From: a virus
Virus record (IMG/VR): IMGVR_UViG_3300029868_000025
DNA: 40,756 nucleotides
Strand: one strand, 5' to 3'
The notes beneath the pieces are model-generated. The model worked only from the letters and a program-made list of their open reading frames with translations, was not told the DNA's origin and did no database searches. Of this stretch, positions 32,519 through 39,080 are shown piece by piece. Positions within the stretch are counted from its first letter, which is position 1; each line of letters starts with the position of its first letter. The position numbers and the translations under genes are program-made.

Positions 32519-34125
32519 TGTCATATGCAACGCAAAGAGACAAGCTAACCCGCACACCAAAGATTATTGTAAAACTTGAGCTAGATAATTCTATATCTGA
32601 TTCTGGCGAAGAGTGGCATTGTTTTGGTGCTACCCCGATTGGTCAATTCTTTTACCCGCACGAGGCGAAAGGCGGCTACTCAGTAACGCCGACAAGGATG
32701 GCAATTGCTTCTGGTTTGGGTTTTCGTGGCCATGTTAAATTAAAGTTTAAAGACTTCTCTATAGGTAGCGCCGGATCATACTTTCCCAAGCTGGTTGCAG
32801 CAAATGAGTATTATCTTGATAGGAAGATAAAAATATATACAGGTTTTTATAACAAGGGTGATACTTTCGACATTGCCGACTTCAAAGAGCATTTGTATTT
32901 TATAAAGAAAATCGAAGGCCCAGACGCAAGAGGTAATGTAACAATAACGGCAGCTGACCCGCTAACATTATTGGACGATGACCAAGCCCAAGCGCCAGCA
33001 CCAAGCGACGGCGTGCTTGCAGGGGCGCTAACTGATTCCGCGACAGGCACGCTAGATATAACCGATAACACAGGGTTTAGCGCTTCTGGCGGCGTTGCCA
33101 ATCTCGACGGCGAGCTTGTGCGGTATTCCGGTATATCAGGCGGCACTTCTATTGTAACAACTGAGCGCGGCGCGTTTGGATCGGAAGCAAAAGCGCACGA
33201 CAGCGGCGACAGCGTTCACAATTCTTATTATGTCGAGAGTGCAAACGTTGTTGATGTTATCCGCTCCCTAATTGAAGATTATTCGCCAATCGACCACGCA
33301 AGCTATATTCCTGATGCAGATTGGAACACTCAGCGTGACGATTTCCTTGTCGGTGAGTTAGTTACTGGCGTTATATCCGAGCCATCGAATGTAAAGGAAA
33401 TCATAGAGAGCCTATGTGAGCAGGCTTATTGCTCGGTGTGGTGGGATGACGTGGCGCAGGAAATAAAGCTAAAAGCAATTGGCCCAACGCCAACGCCAAA
33501 CGTAACGCTAAATAAAACAGAACATATTTTAGAGGACGGCGAAAAGCAGAAGCGCGACCCCACCAAGGCAATCACTGAAGTGTGGATATATTACGGGCGT
33601 AGAGATCATTCGAAAGGTAAAGCCGACCCCAGTAACTACGAATACAGACACATAGCCGTAGACGCAGACGCGACGACAGGACACGGAAAGCCCAAAGTTA
33701 AAAAGATTTACGCTAGTTTCATTCCGGGGTCGGGCGCATCTAGTGCCAGTAAATTAGGCAGCAGAATCTTAGCGCAGAATAAAACAGGCGAGCACAAATA
33801 TGAAATGCAGCTTGATGTTAAAGACGCAGATACAGCGGTAGGTGATACCGCGACGATTGAGACGAATTTAATCCAAGACACAAACGGCGCGCCATTGCCT
33901 TCTGATTTTATGATTGTAGAAAAGCAGCCAATTACGCCAACAAAATACAAATATACCGGCATTAAAACAGGCTGGCTAGTAGGCGCTAAGTATGGGCTGG
34001 TTGCGCCTAATTCGATGGCTGATTACACATCCGCAAGTCAGGCCGACCGGCTTAAGTATGCATTTGTTGCTGACACCTCATCCGAAGAGATGAGTAATGG
34101 CGACGTCCCAAGCTTAATTATATGA
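32518..34125 (+). CDS. Tail tip / host-specificity-like protein (535 aa, GTG start)
   Basis: Position in the tail module. The GELVRYSGISGG...TERGAFGSEAKAHDSGDSV motif resembles that of phage tail tip proteins. Confidence 0.6.
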   Translation: MSYATQRDKLTRTPKIIVKLELDNSISDSGEEWHCFGATPIGQFFYPHEAKGGYSVTPTRMAIASGLGFRGHVKLKFKDFSIGSAGSYFPKLVAANEYYLDRKIKIYTGFYNKGDTFDIADFKEHLYFIKKIEGPDARGNVTITAADPLTLLDDDQAQAPAPSDGVLAGALTDSATGTLDITDNTGFSASGGVANLDGELVRYSGISGGTSIVTTERGAFGSEAKAHDSGDSVHNSYYVESANVVDVIRSLIEDYSPIDHASYIPDADWNTQRDDFLVGELVTGVISEPSNVKEIIESLCEQAYCSVWWDDVAQEIKLKAIGPTPTPNVTLNKTEHILEDGEKQKRDPTKAITEVWIYYGRRDHSKGKADPSNYEYRHIAVDADATTGHGKPKVKKIYASFIPGSGASSASKLGSRILAQNKTGEHKYEMQLDVKDADTAVGDTATIETNLIQDTNGAPLPSDFMIVEKQPITPTKYKYTGIKTGWLVGAKYGLVAPNSMADYTSASQADRLKYAFVADTSSEEMSNGDVPSLII

Positions 34126-34132
34126 GGTATTT

Positions 34133-35083
34133 ATGACAGGTTATACAGGCATAACAACGGCCCAGATAGATACTGATAGCCCAATTGTAGAGGCGACATT
34201 AACAGCTTTGCGGGATGATCCTCTTGCAATGTTCGAAGGGGCGGCGGGTGCGCCTAGGTTGCAGACTGCGGCTATGGATAGTGCAATTGTAACGCTCGAT
34301 AAGATGGCGGCTAATTCCGTTGATCAATCACAGGTAGTGGCGGGAGCTATTCACCAGGCAGAATTAAGCACTTCAACCGGCTCTGTTTCTGTAGCGTTGG
34401 GGGCGGCTCAGGATTTGATTTTACCTGGCGGGTCATATGGGTTTTTTCCGCAAGCGGAGGCGGTGGGCAGCACTGGTGGCTTTATTTTCGCAATGAGAAT
34501 GCTAGAAAGCTCCCCGTTACTGGCGGCAGATGGCCAAGTGACAGCCATTCAATTAGAGCAAGTGTCCGGTCACGCCTCAATAACACTCCACGCTCACCAA
34601 CGATATATAAACTCATCACCACCCTATAACCTAGGAGATGGTGATATACCGCTGTTTCACTTCGGCTTGCTGCGCGATGGCGTTATTGTTGCAACGTATA
34701 CGGCAGACGTTCCGCCATGGGGATACAATGGTCCTACCAGCGTTAGAGCTGACGCAACCAACAGGCAGGGAAAGAAATTCAGGCGCAAGCGCACAATAGA
34801 CAAAAGGCGCGGCAAAGTGGTTACCGAAATGGAAGAAATAACCCACACAATCAAAAACGCCGACATGGGGTTAATTCCCCACCCATTCCTAAGCAAAAAG
34901 GAAGGCGACGAAGTAATTCTATTAAATCCACCAGAAACCAGCGATCTTCTTGATATGCACGAGGCAGGCGAATCGATAGCGCAGTTATTCAAGGATGATT
35001 ATTTGAGGCTAGATAATGCTGACTTAGCCAGGGCAACACCGAGCGGCGTTAAGGCATGTCGATATAGATGGAAGAGTACTTAA
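34133..35083 (+). CDS. Tail-associated protein (316 aa)
   Basis: Last gene of the tail module. N-terminal ITTAQIDTDSPIVEATLTALRDDPLAMFEG motif is common in fibre-like proteins. Confidence 0.55.
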   Translation: MTGYTGITTAQIDTDSPIVEATLTALRDDPLAMFEGAAGAPRLQTAAMDSAIVTLDKMAANSVDQSQVVAGAIHQAELSTSTGSVSVALGAAQDLILPGGSYGFFPQAEAVGSTGGFIFAMRMLESSPLLAADGQVTAIQLEQVSGHASITLHAHQRYINSSPPYNLGDGDIPLFHFGLLRDGVIVATYTADVPPWGYNGPTSVRADATNRQGKKFRRKRTIDKRRGKVVTEMEEITHTIKNADMGLIPHPFLSKKEGDEVILLNPPETSDLLDMHEAGESIAQLFKDDYLRLDNADLARATPSGVKACRYRWKST

Positions 35084-35535
35084 CCTTTGCACCAGTTTTT
35101 ACGCTTCCCCCCGTGGTATGGCCTAGCCTGGCCTTTTTCGATCAAGTAAGCGGCTAGATTGTGCCCGTCAACGTAGACATCGGCTAGCAGTCTAAAATAC
35201 TTCCCTCGCTTAATATTCCTTAGCTCCAGTTCCTTTGTTTGCCTCAATGCGCCAACTGTAAATTGTTTAGCCTTTTGTGCCATTCGTCGTTCGCGACTTT
35301 TGGCGTCTGCGGTCTTGCACTTGCTTTTCATCTCCGGCGCATCAATCCCGTTTATCCTTACGCTAATTCGCTCACCAGCAACGGCAGGCCAGCCAGGAAC
35401 TGTTATGGTGAACGTGTCTGCGTCATAGATGCTTGTCACGGCACTAGATGGTAATTTAAGGTTACCGTATGATTTGGCCGCGAAAGACTGTGAGCAGGCA
35501 AGGAGGGCGCATAAGGTTAGGGTTAATCTAATCAT
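35080..35535 (-). CDS. Secreted or lipoprotein thermonuclease (staphylococcal nuclease/SNase family)
   Basis: Signal MIRLTLTLCALLAC. Motifs YDADTF, RINGIDAPE and GKYFRLLADVY correspond to SNase Ca/catalytic motifs. Confidence 0.85.
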   Translation of the reverse strand: MIRLTLTLCALLACSQSFAAKSYGNLKLPSSAVTSIYDADTFTITVPGWPAVAGERISVRINGIDAPEMKSKCKTADAKSRERRMAQKAKQFTVGALRQTKELELRNIKRGKYFRLLADVYVDGHNLAAYLIEKGQARPYHGGKRKNWCKG

Positions 35536-35939
35536 TGGGCTGGCTCAGCGCTTTCTATCGACTTCTTGACTGACATAGGGTTATCTATCGACTTAAATAA
35601 CATTCCGCTAATGCCTGTGCCCGTCACCTCGACGTCTCCATAACCCAGCATCCTACCCAATATACCTTGCTTAATCTCCACGGTTTCAACTGATGTTAAT
35701 TTAACCTCTTCAGTTTTTCGTGAAATTATCCCTGTTTTATAAATAACGCGCTTATTAGTTACGCCTTGCTCTATCGCTTTAAGAGACAAGTAGGCATAGA
35801 CGGCAAATATTAAAGTTATTCCCAAGGTGAGAGGGGCCAAGATTATACAAAGCACCATGACTATATAGGCCGTCCAATGGTGTTTGAATTTCTCGTATAT
35901 TATCTCGCCCTTAGAAAGCGACTCTTCAATGTAGGCCAT
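35532..35939 (-). CDS. Membrane protein with bacterial PH domain (bPH_2/YdbS-like)
   Basis: Two TM helices followed by VTNKRVIYKTG...VEIKQGILGRMLGYGDVEV...IDNP. ATGA coupling to the nuclease gene. Confidence 0.75.
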   Translation of the reverse strand: MAYIEESLSKGEIIYEKFKHHWTAYIVMVLCIILAPLTLGITLIFAVYAYLSLKAIEQGVTNKRVIYKTGIISRKTEEVKLTSVETVEIKQGILGRMLGYGDVEVTGTGISGMLFKSIDNPMSVKKSIESAEPAQ

Positions 35940-36031
35940 CGTTTATTATCCTTAATCTGATTGTGGAATGTGGATATTAGGCTAAGGACAAAATAGAGTC
36001 AATTTTGCTTACTATGGATGGGGGCTGGTCA

Positions 36032-36544
36032 CTACTCGCAGTCTTTTGCCACCTTCGTGCAAATCCCCTCACCTAGTATCATTATCCGCTCAATTATACT
36101 GTCCAAATTAGTGTATAAATCAATCAGCGTTTTTTCGCTGTGCTTGTCGTGATCTCCGTTGCTTACACCTTCTATATCCTCAATCGCAGCGTTCAACAGT
36201 CCGTAGAATTCAACAATCTCGCCTGCTAGGCCATACTCCAGTACACCAAGTTTTTGTATGTTTGCGTCGTATGCTTTCGAGTAAGACCGCCTTACATGGG
36301 CGCTAAAGGATGCGGTGGAACTATCTCGCTTAAGGTTTGCTATGTGCGACTGTATGTGTTGCTGGTATTGCCTCTTTTTTATCAGCTTGCAGACCATGCC
36401 GATTTCACCGGAAATTACGACGGCAATACTTCTGGCTTCAAGAGTTTTTTTGCGATTGTCCAGTATATAGGTTGCCCCAACTGAGCTACAAAAAGCGATA
36501 AGTCCGCCCACGATAGTTCCTAATAGTGCCGACATTTTCCACAT
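36032..36544 (-). CDS. Membrane-anchored hypothetical protein (170 aa)
   Basis: N-terminal TM ALLGTIVGGLIAFCSSVGATYIL followed by a helical soluble domain. First gene of the cassette next to attP. Confidence 0.6.
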   Translation of the reverse strand: MWKMSALLGTIVGGLIAFCSSVGATYILDNRKKTLEARSIAVVISGEIGMVCKLIKKRQYQQHIQSHIANLKRDSSTASFSAHVRRSYSKAYDANIQKLGVLEYGLAGEIVEFYGLLNAAIEDIEGVSNGDHDKHSEKTLIDLYTNLDSIIERIMILGEGICTKVAKDCE

Positions 36545-36643
36545 CCTTTGTTAATTGATTGGCGGTCATTTTCGCCCGAAACGCACATTAACTCAAATAC
36601 CCCTAGATTCCTTTTTAATCAACGAGTTGCATTCACGAGTACT

Positions 36644-36693
36644 TTACAATGGGGTTGTAGGGGTCGAAGGTTCAAATCCTTTCGCCCCGACCA
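36644..36693 (+). other. attP core: 3' 50 nt of a tRNA-Pro gene (anticodon arm to CCA), not a complete tRNA
   Basis: TTACA-ATGGGGT-TGTAG anticodon arm (GGG, G37), GGGTC, GAAGG-TTCAAAT-CCTTT T-arm, CGCCCCG-A-CCA. No matching 5' acceptor or D-arm upstream. Confidence 0.75.
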
Positions 36694-36698
36694 ATTGA

Positions 36699-36714
36699 CG
36701 CGGGTTGCAGTGTT
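36699..36714 (+). repeat. Direct repeat CGCGGGTTGCAGTGTT (copy 1; candidate Int arm-type site)
   Basis: Recurs with a 1-nt deletion at 36851..36865. Confidence 0.7.
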
Positions 36715-36724
36715 AAGGGATACT

Positions 36725-36749
36725 AACCGCACACAAACCGCACACAAAC
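36725..36749 (+). repeat. Tandem 11-bp repeat (AACCGCACACA)x2 plus AAC
   Basis: Read directly; one helical turn period, within the attP arm. Confidence 0.85.
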
Positions 36750-36808
36750 TAAGATTTTAAAGAATTATGTCTTGTTTTGGTACGTAGCAATACTTAAACG
36801 GCGTAATG

Positions 36809-36832
36809 AAAAAAAAGGGGCTGAAGAGCCCC
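36809..36832 (-). terminator. Rho-independent terminator, minus strand only
   Basis: GGGGCT-cttc-AGCCCC followed by TTTTTTTT on the minus strand. Confidence 0.7.
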
Positions 36833-36850
36833 TTCCCCCATTGAGTTTTC

Positions 36851-36865
36851 CGCGGGTTGCGTGTT
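36851..36865 (+). repeat. Direct repeat CGCGGGTTGCGTGTT (copy 2)
   Basis: Matches 36699..36714 apart from a one-base indel. Confidence 0.7.
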
Positions 36866-36948
36866 CAATGTATTGTTGATGGAGATGGCGCTTATAATTT
36901 ATGTAGCGTCACAATTGGTTTTCGCTATTCGGAAACAGGACTTGGGAT

Positions 36949-37830
36949 TTGACTACAACGATATTTAGGAAGCGGCACAAAAAGCCTGCAGTAATGGCCT
37001 CTGACACCCGGGTAAGCTACCTGAACAGCAACGGAAAGATAGCAAAATGGGACGATGTCGATGAGTTCTTGAAGTGCGTTGATATTGGCGGGGTTTTGTA
37101 CGGATTTGCTGGAACCAATATAATATTCGCTGAATTTTTGAAAGAGTATGATCTAATAATTAATAGATCTGATTTTTGGCTTGATTCACTTGTTGAATTT
37201 GCTAAACATATTGGGGTTCAGTTTTACATTATGCGATATGACGGGAGTTTGCAGTTGTTTGCATATTCTCGCGCTGATCCAGGAAGCGATCAGCCAGAGA
37301 TCAAGAGGACATCCAGAGATCAAGCTGTTAACAGTAAGACTTTTGCTATTGGGTCTGGCCGATTCTCCAAAATGTATAAGGAGAATAAGGGCAAGGGAGG
37401 GGCGCAGCTGCCAATTCGCAGGATAGTTGGTGCCAATCTCAAAGCGATAGCACGTTGTAACCTTAAAGATGTGGTAAAAAAAGCTAAAAATGCTACTCTG
37501 AATGATAAGGAATCCGAAAAAATAGCTTTTGCGTGCTACGAGGAGGGTGGGGATTTACCCACTGGTGGCAAGATTAATATGACTACTAAACAGAGTGATA
37601 TTCAAATGGAAAGAGAGCTTGTGGGTGAGCAGGTTAAACTCCTGGAGGGGTTGGAAGATGCAGCCTCATCGAATGATTTACGTTGCGCTAGCCCGTTTGA
37701 CGCCGCTGAAGAGGCCGCGCGCCTTAACAGTATGGGGCAAGTAGTATGCAGTGATTATACTCCAGAGCAAACGGACGAGTTTATTGCGCTACAACAGAAG
37801 TTAGCGAAGTCAGTTGGTCGGTATTTCTAA
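36949..37830 (+). CDS. HslV/proteasome-beta-like Ntn threonine peptidase with ~80-aa C-terminal extension
   Basis: TTG start with an AGGA RBS 8 nt upstream gives M-TTTIF. Motifs AVMASDTRVS, YGFAGT, FAIGSG and GGDLPTGGKINM parallel HslV TTIV, IAGDGQAT, GFAGG, AIGSGG and the proteasome D..SGG. Confidence 0.7.
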   Translation: MTTTIFRKRHKKPAVMASDTRVSYLNSNGKIAKWDDVDEFLKCVDIGGVLYGFAGTNIIFAEFLKEYDLIINRSDFWLDSLVEFAKHIGVQFYIMRYDGSLQLFAYSRADPGSDQPEIKRTSRDQAVNSKTFAIGSGRFSKMYKENKGKGGAQLPIRRIVGANLKAIARCNLKDVVKKAKNATLNDKESEKIAFACYEEGGDLPTGGKINMTTKQSDIQMERELVGEQVKLLEGLEDAASSNDLRCASPFDAAEEAARLNSMGQVVCSDYTPEQTDEFIALQQKLAKSVGRYF

Positions 37831-37842
37831 TGCTGTTAGGTA

Positions 37843-37882
37843 AATACAGCCCCTAGCTAGACAGTAGTCTAAAGGCTGTATT
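37843..37882. terminator. Hairpin between convergent peptidase and int genes
   Basis: AATACAGCC...GGCTGTATT stem with an inner AGAC-agta-GTCT stem. Confidence 0.4.
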
Positions 37883-37892
37883 CATGATTTTA

Positions 37893-39080
37893 TCAAAAAC
37901 TCCCCCCAAGCACTTTCTCCGATATCGTCATATCAATATCAGTCCATTGTATTTCATGCCCTGCCTGGTAATGCTCCGTCATTTCAGCATCGGTGTGCGC
38001 CATTAATTCCTGCACTCGCCCAATATCATAACCAGCCTTTCCATAAAGGTGGCTACCCAGTGCGCGTATCTCGTGGAAGGTCGGTTTTTGGCGTTTCTCT
38101 AATCCAGAAAATAGGCCGGTAGCGTCTCTGGCCTCAACAAAGGCATCAGAAAATATGCGGGGCAATACTTGGCAATGGTGGGTCTTTTTACCCATTACCC
38201 TTTTTTGCGGCAGCCGGTTGATGACGTAAGGGCAGCGGTAATGCTTCAATGATAGCTCTCGCGCTCTCGCTATGAGTTCGCGTAACATTGGGTTATCGCT
38301 CAAATCCCATCGCAGGTTGGCCCCTTCGCCATTTTCGGCCTTTTCGTGGCTTTTAGAAATACCCTTACATAATTGATCGTTGACTATGTGCCGGTCAAAT
38401 TTAAGGTAAACAATATCGCCTCTCCGCATGGTGGTAAGTAGGCTGATCCCCATTCCTATCTGTAAGTAATCTAAACCGAGCTCGCCAGCTTTCTCGTAAA
38501 TTTTCCAAAAGCTCTCTTTGTCGAGTCGCTGTCTTTCCTTTTTAGGTAGTGGCTTCATTAGTACGCGAGGGCGATCATCGGCAGTGGTGAATGGGTTGCC
38601 TTTAAGTAGAGGCACAACATCCTTAGACATTAGCCAGTTAAAAAATTTATTGAATTCAGAGCGTCTTGAGCGCTGAGCGTATCCGGTTAAGTGGTCCCAC
38701 CAATTTTGTATAGAGATAAGGTCTAGGTGGCTAATTGGGGTGGTGGTAAATTCGGTGGCAAACTGCCGCAAATAGCCTCCGCGAGTCTTCCATGATTCCT
38801 TAGCTTGTAGCGATGGGTCGAGCTTTTCTCTATAAGCCTCGTAATCAAGAGCGTATTTAATCACCGAATCTCTTCGTGGGGGAGGGGCTTTCATCATCCC
38901 CTTTTCTTTATTGGTGGCGTTCGCAACCTCCACGGCATCCTCTAGGGTTGCGTGAAAAATCTTCTCTGTGCCGTCTCGCCTCTTGTAGCGCCAATAATTT
39001 ATTCGCCCTTTGGGGTCTTTATATAGGTTGTCAGGCAATAGAATGCCGTCCACAAACCTAGGCTTCTTAGGTCGTGCCAT
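37893..39080 (-). CDS. int: Tyrosine integrase (lambda Int-like)
   Basis: FHEIRALGSHLYGKAGY...VQELMAHTDAEMTEHYQAGH parallels lambda THELRSLSARLY...LLGHKSDTMASQYR. Confidence 0.95.
   Translation of the reverse strand: MARPKKPRFVDGILLPDNLYKDPKGRINYWRYKRRDGTEKIFHATLEDAVEVANATNKEKGMMKAPPPRRDSVIKYALDYEAYREKLDPSLQAKESWKTRGGYLRQFATEFTTTPISHLDLISIQNWWDHLTGYAQRSRRSEFNKFFNWLMSKDVVPLLKGNPFTTADDRPRVLMKPLPKKERQRLDKESFWKIYEKAGELGLDYLQIGMGISLLTTMRRGDIVYLKFDRHIVNDQLCKGISKSHEKAENGEGANLRWDLSDNPMLRELIARARELSLKHYRCPYVINRLPQKRVMGKKTHHCQVLPRIFSDAFVEARDATGLFSGLEKRQKPTFHEIRALGSHLYGKAGYDIGRVQELMAHTDAEMTEHYQAGHEIQWTDIDMTISEKVLGGSF

Follow-up and report, generated by a model that had tools for sequence, protein, structure and literature searches.

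The b region of phage lambda, located between the tail genes and attP, is the textbook case of an accessory 'moron' region. Mobile genetic elements (MGEs) may also carry exported functions directed against DNA: the periplasmic DNases IdeA of the integrative and conjugative element (ICE) VchInd5 and SxnA of SXT, both from Vibrio cholerae, as well as the Dns enzyme of prophage CJIE1 in Campylobacter, degrade incoming DNA and block natural transformation, which is the role best documented for exported DNases on MGEs (PMC12378983; PMC7693049). IdeA and SxnA are Dns homologues, with 51% identity and 64% similarity (PMC7693049). Among membrane proteins with a bacterial PH (bPH) domain, the YdbS/YdbT-like pair DdE/DdF is needed to externalise the leaderless bacteriocin enterocin DD14 (PMC8657885), and membrane-anchored PHb domains have been predicted to be intracellular, with a ring-forming tendency noted by Xu et al. 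(PMC2817789). Here, we describe three minus-strand genes at positions 35080-36544 of the IMG/VR virus record IMGVR_UViG_3300029868_000025, whose whole stretch of 40,756 nucleotides is referred to as the window. They encode a staphylococcal-type nuclease (SNase), a bPH protein, and a membrane protein of 170 residues, p170, and are collectively called the cassette. The interval between the tail genes and attP is probably best understood as a variable moron slot with three independently acquired accessory genes, of which the nuclease acts alone on free DNA, a reading that we favour with reasonable rather than high confidence.

Composition and variability of the tail-attP interval

The open reading frame (ORF) map of the whole window corresponds to a complete lambda-like temperate phage genome, in which the minus-strand early genes run from the right end on into the left end. 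The three minus-strand ORFs of the cassette are flanked by the last tail gene on one side and a tRNA-Pro-like attP core on the other, with the following features:

35080-35535, minus strand: SNase (thermonuclease) family gene, putatively exported product of 151 aa (Pfam, PHROG, NCBIfam, alignment)
35532-35939, minus strand: bPH_2 / PHROG 3707 'membrane-flanked domain' gene, 135 aa (Pfam, PHROG, AlphaFold2 (AF2), Foldseek)
36032-36544, minus strand: p170 gene, the first ATG giving 170 aa and the probable M4 start at 36535 giving 167 aa (ORF map, HMMER, AF2)
35532-35535, minus strand: ATGA overlap between the stop TGA of the bPH gene and the start ATG of the SNase gene (sequence read directly)
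within 35080-35535, minus strand: candidate signal peptide of the nuclease, residues ~1-19, ending in SFA before AK (heuristic reading)

An earlier note on this DNA had described the same layout at the attP flank, had called a SNase homologue and a bPH_2 protein translationally coupled by the overlap, and had regarded the cassette as dispensable for virions. All of this holds: the ORFs were recovered at their places, the overlap can be read in the sequence, the Pfam matches lie above the cut-offs and PHROG matches agree with them, and the nuclease motifs align to the Ca/catalytic positions of the Staphylococcus aureus enzyme. AF2 and Foldseek likewise agree with its two membrane helices plus PH domain for the bPH protein, and AF2 with its single N-terminal transmembrane (TM) helix and helical soluble domain for the 170-aa protein, the start of which is more likely at M4.

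The three families do not recur together outside this phage. Within ±8 kb of the SNase gene, no bPH- or p170-family ORF was found in 79 IMG/VR viral contigs (0/79), and within the same distance of the bPH gene, SNase- and p170-family ORFs were absent from 85 loci (0/85), consisting of 80 genome loci, 4 viral loci, and 1 sister phage. The 12 metagenome loci looked at for p170 also lack a SNase or bPH partner within ±8 kb (0/12). The three genes were found together only in other metagenomic copies of the same phage (L001, L004, and L005; 99-100% identity).

The corresponding slots of sister phages hold single members. In the sister represented by L009 and L091, the tail proteins are 50-63% identical and in the same order, and the post-tail slot holds a bPH gene (69% identity), convergent to the tail genes and followed by unrelated small ORFs, with neither nuclease nor p170. 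In sister L002, the homologues of the tail fibre and of the 316-aa protein are 59-63% identical, and the nuclease (69%) comes after a RadC-family gene and a gene of 117-141 aa that is unrelated. In sister L003, the homologue of the 316-aa protein is 66% identical, and the nuclease (64%) is preceded by a gene for a 279-aa membrane protein. By eye, the C-terminal part of the 117-141-aa protein of L002 (positions 49-868, with the RadC-family (JAB) neighbour) resembles a 135-aa protein encoded farther upstream in L003 (2228-2635), and the small proteins of the two sisters are possibly a conserved partner pair.

Furthermore, clustering of the neighbouring genes left 99 of 126 SNase-gene neighbours as singletons, as well as 86 of 115 bPH-gene neighbours, several of which look like housekeeping genes by sequence. 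The SNase start in the window is not preceded by a good Shine-Dalgarno sequence, which, together with the ATGA overlap, is consistent with translational coupling of bPH and SNase. However, SNase starts elsewhere overlap, by 1-4 nt, the stops of many different upstream genes, including helix-turn-helix (HTH) regulators, a ribbon-helix-helix (RHH)-like protein, and assorted membrane proteins, so that the overlap is not specific to bPH. A conserved neighbour of the SNase gene was also considered and rejected, since the upstream genes are mutually unrelated and a hydrophobic segment is present in only 12 of 50 close upstream ORFs.

Collectively, the lack of co-occurrence, the single members in sister slots, the singleton neighbours, and the unspecific overlap indicate that the accessory genes of the slot are mobile independently of one another and form a mosaic. 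The juxtaposition of bPH and nuclease is specific to this phage lineage, and the cassette shows no defining feature of a multi-gene defence system. No defence model of PADLOC matches the three proteins or the 293-aa neighbour described below, and the PHROGs matches of the three proteins contain no superinfection exclusion (Sie) category.

The features surrounding the three genes are as follows:

34133-35083, plus strand: last tail gene, convergent with the SNase gene (ORF map)
35080-35083, both strands: stop-codon overlap of the convergent last tail and SNase genes (ORF map and sequence reading)
35974-36002, minus strand: sigma-70-like match TTGACT-17-TAATAT, candidate promoter of the bPH-SNase bicistron (consensus match only)
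36659-36693, plus strand: candidate attP core, repeating the 3'-terminal part of a tRNA-Pro gene with T-arm and acceptor 3' strand (sequence match)
36809-36835, minus strand: intrinsic terminator hairpin AAGGGGCU-CUUC-AGCCCCUU with a U run (sequence and folding)
36949-37830, plus strand: 293-aa ORF, flanked by attP core and integrase gene, on the strand opposite to int

The last tail gene is preceded by that of a 535-aa protein with a match to PHROG 11439 'tail fiber' (E = 2e-75). Neither the consensus scan nor reading of the sequence revealed a terminator between the convergent tail and SNase genes. Given these convergent stops, late transcription would cross the entire cassette in antisense direction. 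The candidate promoter is located within the 92-nt gap between the p170 and bPH genes. The gap with its promoter-like site suggests that there are probably two transcription units, one with p170 alone and the other with the bPH-SNase bicistron.

On the attP side, positions 36659-36693 match the final 35 nt of a tRNA-Pro(GGG) gene in a bacterial locus (L154) with 94% identity, and ARAGORN detected no complete tRNA or tmRNA in the window. Since a copy of a tRNA 3' end is the usual mark of the attP core of a tRNA-targeting integrase, this segment was taken as the core candidate. After integration, the cassette would occupy the attR end and be transcribed inward. The tRNA-like fragment is followed by the 293-aa ORF on the plus strand and by the tyrosine integrase gene at 37893-39080. 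The terminator at 36809-36835, with a 9-bp GC-rich stem, a CUUC loop, and a U run, is confirmed by folding, although the consensus scan had not listed it. It is positioned between attP and the 293-aa ORF, on the int side and thus outside the cassette, where it would halt minus-strand transcripts heading from the int side to the reconstituted tRNA. The 293-aa ORF has no match in Pfam, PHROGs, NCBIfam, PADLOC, or PDB sequences, and is kept at 99.7% in L004, another copy of the same phage. Megablast of positions 34000-38000 against GenBank phages gave no match, and an Rfam scan of 35000-38000 at E<=1 gave nothing. Judged by the taxonomy of the homologues, the host would be a marine gammaproteobacterium or similar.

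The SNase-family nuclease

The nuclease is the only part of the cassette with an inferable mechanism. It matches the Pfam model SNase (PF00565) at 7.2e-10, with 39.7 bits against a cut-off of 21, and phrog_452 'endonuclease' at 5.4e-15. The NCBIfam equivalogs EcnA and NucI gave weak matches far under their equivalog cut-offs, and a literature search on the NCBIfam name 'EcnA calcium-activated nuclease' yielded nothing relevant. The protein is alignable to S. aureus Nuc at ~20-25% (phmmer E about 0.01). In the alignment to PDB chains of the S. aureus enzyme, YDADT falls on IDGDT (D19/D21/T22), RINGIDAPE on RLLLVDTPE (R35...D40...E43), and YFRLLADVY on YGRGLAYIY (Y85/R87). The residues D40, D65, E68, R60, and R115 of the window nuclease map to D21, D40, E43, R35, and R87, respectively, and A66 maps to the T41 backbone position. 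We take the roles of these S. aureus residues to be those established in the SNase literature, namely D21, D40, and the T41 backbone as Ca2+ ligands and R35, E43, and R87 as catalytic residues. The Ca/catalytic residues of the window nuclease (D38, D40, T41, R60, D65, E68, and R115) are invariant across 37 aligned family members, and A66 is nearly invariant.

In a collection of 5.8 billion proteins, 243 relatives of the nuclease were found, most of them ~140-150 aa long and 50-60% identical, and the named ones among them trace to marine Gammaproteobacteria (Vibrio, Grimontia, Enterovibrio, Psychromonas, Ferrimonas, and Thalassotalea). The 37-member alignment shows no variation at Cys73 and Cys149, which probably form a disulfide in the exported enzyme. 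The nuclease belongs to a distinct subfamily from marine Gammaproteobacteria that is marked by this Cys pair. A 6-residue insertion, KTADAK or KNKAAK, is present right behind Cys73 in the nuclease of this phage lineage (the window, P0002, and L003 3767-4117); it is absent in the 35 other aligned members.

All 37 relatives carry a hydrophobic N-terminal signal sequence. The earlier note had proposed either a signal peptide or a lipobox (LLAC), and of these two readings the first stood. The lipoprotein reading was rejected because the LLAC Cys is not conserved: a lipobox-like Cys occurs in only two of the 37, the window protein and one other, and is lacking in the remaining 35. The closest relative shows a plain signal peptidase I (SPase I) site between ALA and A. 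The enzyme is therefore more likely exported by the Sec/SPase I route as a soluble protein than lipidated, and this heuristic view, based on conservation, would fit a soluble and probably disulfide-bonded product.

The genomic distribution of the family is also informative. In Thalassotalea sp. HSM 43 (L185 7284-9871), a chromosomal homologue is located directly after ssb, from which it could be deduced that the phage gene is plausibly a captured host enzyme. This homologue overlaps the downstream gene of a DedA/VTT-family membrane protein by 4 nt, beyond which a DsbA-family gene lies on the other strand. The nuclease gene lies <=7.8 kb from a contig end in 51 of 74 viral loci and <=1 kb in 16, raw counts that are no more than suggestive of a tendency toward the ends of viral contigs. 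Besides being common in chromosomes, the family can be described as a recurrent prophage cargo of marine Gammaproteobacteria (79 IMG/VR loci, often near contig ends), in which an exported thermonuclease probably bears a disulfide.

On the favoured reading, the nuclease would be expressed from the prophage, exported via Sec, freed of its signal peptide by SPase I, and either kept soluble in the periplasm or released. As predicted from its family, it would cleave free DNA and RNA non-specifically in a Ca2+-dependent manner, and so could destroy extracellular or periplasmic DNA prior to uptake. Reduced natural transformation would then make replacement of the prophage by recombination less likely; in addition or instead, the action of the nuclease might feed the cell and thin matrices of extracellular DNA (eDNA). 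A lysogenic-conversion trait acting on extracellular DNA, which the earlier note had named as an alternative, is plausible for the nuclease alone.

The principal competing explanation places the nuclease in the lytic cycle: it would be released at lysis and cut host or biofilm DNA, with lower viscosity, virions freed from eDNA, and nucleotides recycled. A homologue of 50% identity is found among the early/replication genes of Sulfurimonas phage SNW-1, and more remote SNase-like genes are carried by large Rhizobium phages (genomes of 154-208 kb); the predicted non-specific activity and export of the enzyme would also suit such a role. However, the gene runs opposite to the late operon with convergent, overlapping stops, its accessory slot lies next to att and may have its own promoter upstream of bPH, and members of the family are frequent close to the ends of prophage-type contigs. 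A lytic function is thus possible but rather unlikely.

Several points weigh against the moron-slot reading and the action of the nuclease on free DNA. The ATGA coupling could mark a real bPH-SNase pairing that has arisen too recently, or is too uncommon, to appear in co-occurrence counts, and the hidden Markov models (HMMs) behind those counts are family-specific, so that very distant bPH or SNase analogues would escape them. No sigma-70-like site upstream of p170 was found at the scan threshold. The cassette genes run head-on into the late operon with no terminator in between. The transformation-blocking DNases belong to the Dns/endonuclease I family and not to SNase (PMC7693049), so that the analogy with them is one of localisation and activity class. 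Moreover, a block of transformation would presuppose a naturally competent host.

The bPH and p170 membrane proteins

The bPH protein matches Pfam bPH_2 (PF03703) at 3.7e-13, with 50 bits against a cut-off of 22, and phrog_3707 at 4e-31, a PHROG of the moron category. Its AF2 model (predicted local distance difference test, pLDDT, 81) comprises an N-terminal strand, short helices at 22-33 and 41-55 that would form a membrane hairpin, a beta-sandwich, and a C-terminal helix, and the best PDB matches of this model in Foldseek are the bacterial PH domains 3dcx/3hsa (prob 1.00). The value for lysine plus arginine (K+R) is 4.6 after the hydrophobic block versus 1.9 before it. This bias, together with the published prediction for anchored PHb domains (PMC2817789), suggests that the PH domain faces the cytoplasm. 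On the model of bacterial PH domains with solved structures, the protein probably forms oligomeric rings beneath the membrane.

The protein search with bPH gave 757 matches. The subfamily accounts for at least 547 loci in species-representative genomes, at 55-70% identity, and ranges over Gamma-, Beta-, and Deltaproteobacteria as well as Elusimicrobia, Bacteroidota, Gemmatimonadetes, and Vicinamibacterales metagenome-assembled genomes (MAGs); it is therefore a very widespread and strikingly conserved subfamily of small proteins (at least 547 genomes). The surroundings at the loci L103-L182 are mostly unrelated and often housekeeping-looking, and conservation of this degree is unusual for an uncharacterised protein. 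The same two flanking genes recur around bPH in several Halopseudomonas/Pseudomonas genomes. Remote homologues of ~37% identity are present in 282 GenBank phage records, mostly of virulent Ackermannviridae, where they sit among early nucleotide-metabolism genes. In viral contigs, the single-sequence search found nothing and the alignment-based search found 4 loci only. In L009-L011 (5153-7520), genes for an N6_N4 DNA methyltransferase and a McrBC-family protein lie immediately upstream of bPH, with no integrase in the stretch fetched. Neither gene neighbouring bPH in the window matches bPH as a YdbT-like partner would, and no conserved partner was found across the 85 bPH loci.

The second alternative is a two-gene module, in which the bPH protein would serve as export helper, membrane tether, or immunity protein/regulator of the nuclease. 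The ATGA overlap with its weak Shine-Dalgarno sequence implies coupled translation, and the role of DdE/DdF provides an example of export assisted by such proteins (PMC8657885). On the other hand, the nuclease is found without bPH in 79/79 other viral loci and in chromosomes, and bPH is found without SNase in 85/85 loci and in the 282 phage records; SNase genes are, moreover, overlapped alike by many unrelated upstream genes. Since the protein has no YdbT-like partner and the nuclease carries a Sec signal peptide of its own, little weight was given to export helper or immunity functions, and we doubt that the two genes form a module.

For the p170 gene, M4 at 36535 is the likelier start, in view of the spacing from an AAGGA Shine-Dalgarno sequence and a recorded gene call of 167 aa. 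A word-indexed search returned p170 alone, but the orphan reading had to be rejected, because exhaustive HMMER searching gave 365 relatives at E<=1e-3, which are 160-190 aa long and align from end to end at 25-30% identity. Conserved positions are G13, G46, R58, Y60, Y88, N95, G100, L102, Y114, and E122-D123, and conserved motifs are R-x-Y, N-x-x-x-x-G-x-L, and L-E-D. With the family alignment, AF2 gave a confident model (pLDDT 94.8) in which a helical bundle follows a long N-terminal helix. K+R residues are more frequent after the TM segment than before it in 50/50 relatives (mean 4.1 versus 0.3), from which the family is predicted to have a single-pass N-out/C-in anchor and a cytoplasmic bundle. 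The earlier note had placed all three products at or beyond the inner membrane; this agrees with the nuclease, predicted to be exported, but not with the soluble domains of the two membrane proteins, both of which are predicted to be cytoplasmic.

Searches of 50 p170 members gave no shared family in Pfam and isolated weak matches only in PADLOC. A PDB profile search returned designed coiled coils only, and Foldseek against PDB and BFVD found nothing under E = 0.001, just generic helical bundles. No entry for the family exists in Pfam, NCBIfam, PHROGs, or PADLOC, and structural comparison gives it no significant neighbour. For the locus searches, a 50-sequence alignment was too divergent, and a 14-sequence alignment was used instead; it found no locus in viral contigs and 12 loci in metagenomes.

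The genomic contexts of p170 are consistently accessory. A homologue of 182 aa (7001-7549 in L096) lies between trbE/virB4 and a TrbJ-like gene (TIGR02780, 8.5e-16) of a conjugative Trb operon in L096-L099, and the copy is an unusual additional gene within this otherwise conserved Trb-type type IV secretion system (T4SS) operon. Another is located at the outer end of a Caballeronia prophage (L100), convergent to tail and lysis genes, and a third in a cyanobacterial islet beside XisH/XisI and Uma2 genes (L101/L102). In defence-type islands, homologues are found downstream of a NsnA/GmrSD_N-like gene (PADLOC 2.7e-47) and near a TIR-NB-ARC-TPR protein (L191, 955-7542), and flanked by a TIR-like protein and a NERD-domain protein (L194, 6772-9754); a further one lies near a weak HEPN match (L188). 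This is guilt by association from about seven contexts, which provides grounds for a screen and not for a claim. Since its few legible contexts are mobile elements and defence-type islands, the unannotated p170 family would be an inexpensive entry in a screen for defence or exclusion. It is conceivable, although improbable, that the family forms a novel type of exclusion or defence factor, anchored in the membrane and working alone, at prophage ends, in conjugative T4SS operons, and in defence islands, here perhaps combined with the exported nuclease as an 'exclude and destroy' barrier.

The earlier note had gone further and had seen in the three products one plausible superinfection-exclusion envelope system, a proposal that it had itself made dependent on co-occurrence of the genes outside this phage. 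In this scheme, the membrane proteins would block or divert phage DNA and the exported nuclease would degrade it in the periplasm. T4 offers a precedent, in that DNA excluded by Imm is broken down by the periplasmic host endonuclease I, but this precedent is conceptual, and nothing found here ties the three genes together in that way. Although the genes are adjacent and co-oriented at a prophage end, bPH and SNase overlap by ATGA, the nuclease is predicted to be exported, and p170 relatives occur inside a Trb operon and beside defence genes, such a system is very improbable in view of the missing co-occurrence (0/79, 0/85, and 0/12 loci), the single members in sister-phage slots, the lack of a PADLOC model match, the predicted cytoplasmic location of both soluble membrane-protein domains, and the 92-nt gap with a promoter-like site between p170 and bPH. 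With the three-gene system not upheld, the cassette adds nothing new to catalogues of phage defence.

Comparison with described systems

With IdeA, SxnA, and Dns, the window nuclease would share its predicted export, by which it would encounter incoming DNA in the periplasm, and its non-specific activity, and it is carried on an integrating element, with integrase and tRNA-type attP, of an aquatic gammaproteobacterium as judged by its homologues. It differs from them in fold: in Pfam, the window protein matched the SNase model only, and the resemblance is functional. If the nuclease indeed lowers transformation or processes eDNA, the conflict between MGE nucleases and competence described for Dns-type enzymes would include a second nuclease fold as well as marine phages.

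Within the staphylococcal nuclease family (PF00565, COG1525 'YncB', PHROG 452), the window protein is typical in its Ca2+ ligands, its catalytic Arg/Glu/Arg, its N-terminal export signal, and its small single domain. Unlike S. aureus Nuc, it has the invariant Cys pair of its subfamily and the 6-residue insertion of its lineage.

The bPH protein resembles YdbS-type bPH_2 / PHROG 3707 proteins, such as gp028 of the Ackermannviridae phage phiSboM-AG3, in having two short membrane helices, one PH domain, a length of ~135 aa, and a phage-borne gene. In contrast to ydbS-ydbT of Bacillus subtilis or ddE-ddF, it occurs without a YdbT-like partner (PMC8657885), and it differs from the Ackermannviridae proteins, to which it is ~37% identical, in belonging to an unusually conserved subfamily.

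Each of the three genes is thus of a known kind, a thermonuclease, a bPH_2 moron catalogued in PHROGs, and a member of a sizeable unnamed family. What novelty is left would come from the p170 family and from SNase-fold nucleases, should these prove to be a second type of MGE weapon against DNA uptake. As a whole, the interval is unrelated to the lambda b region in gene content, whereas it resembles that region in the position of the slot, in its dispensable and variable genes, in their orientation opposite to the late operon, and in a candidate promoter of its own.

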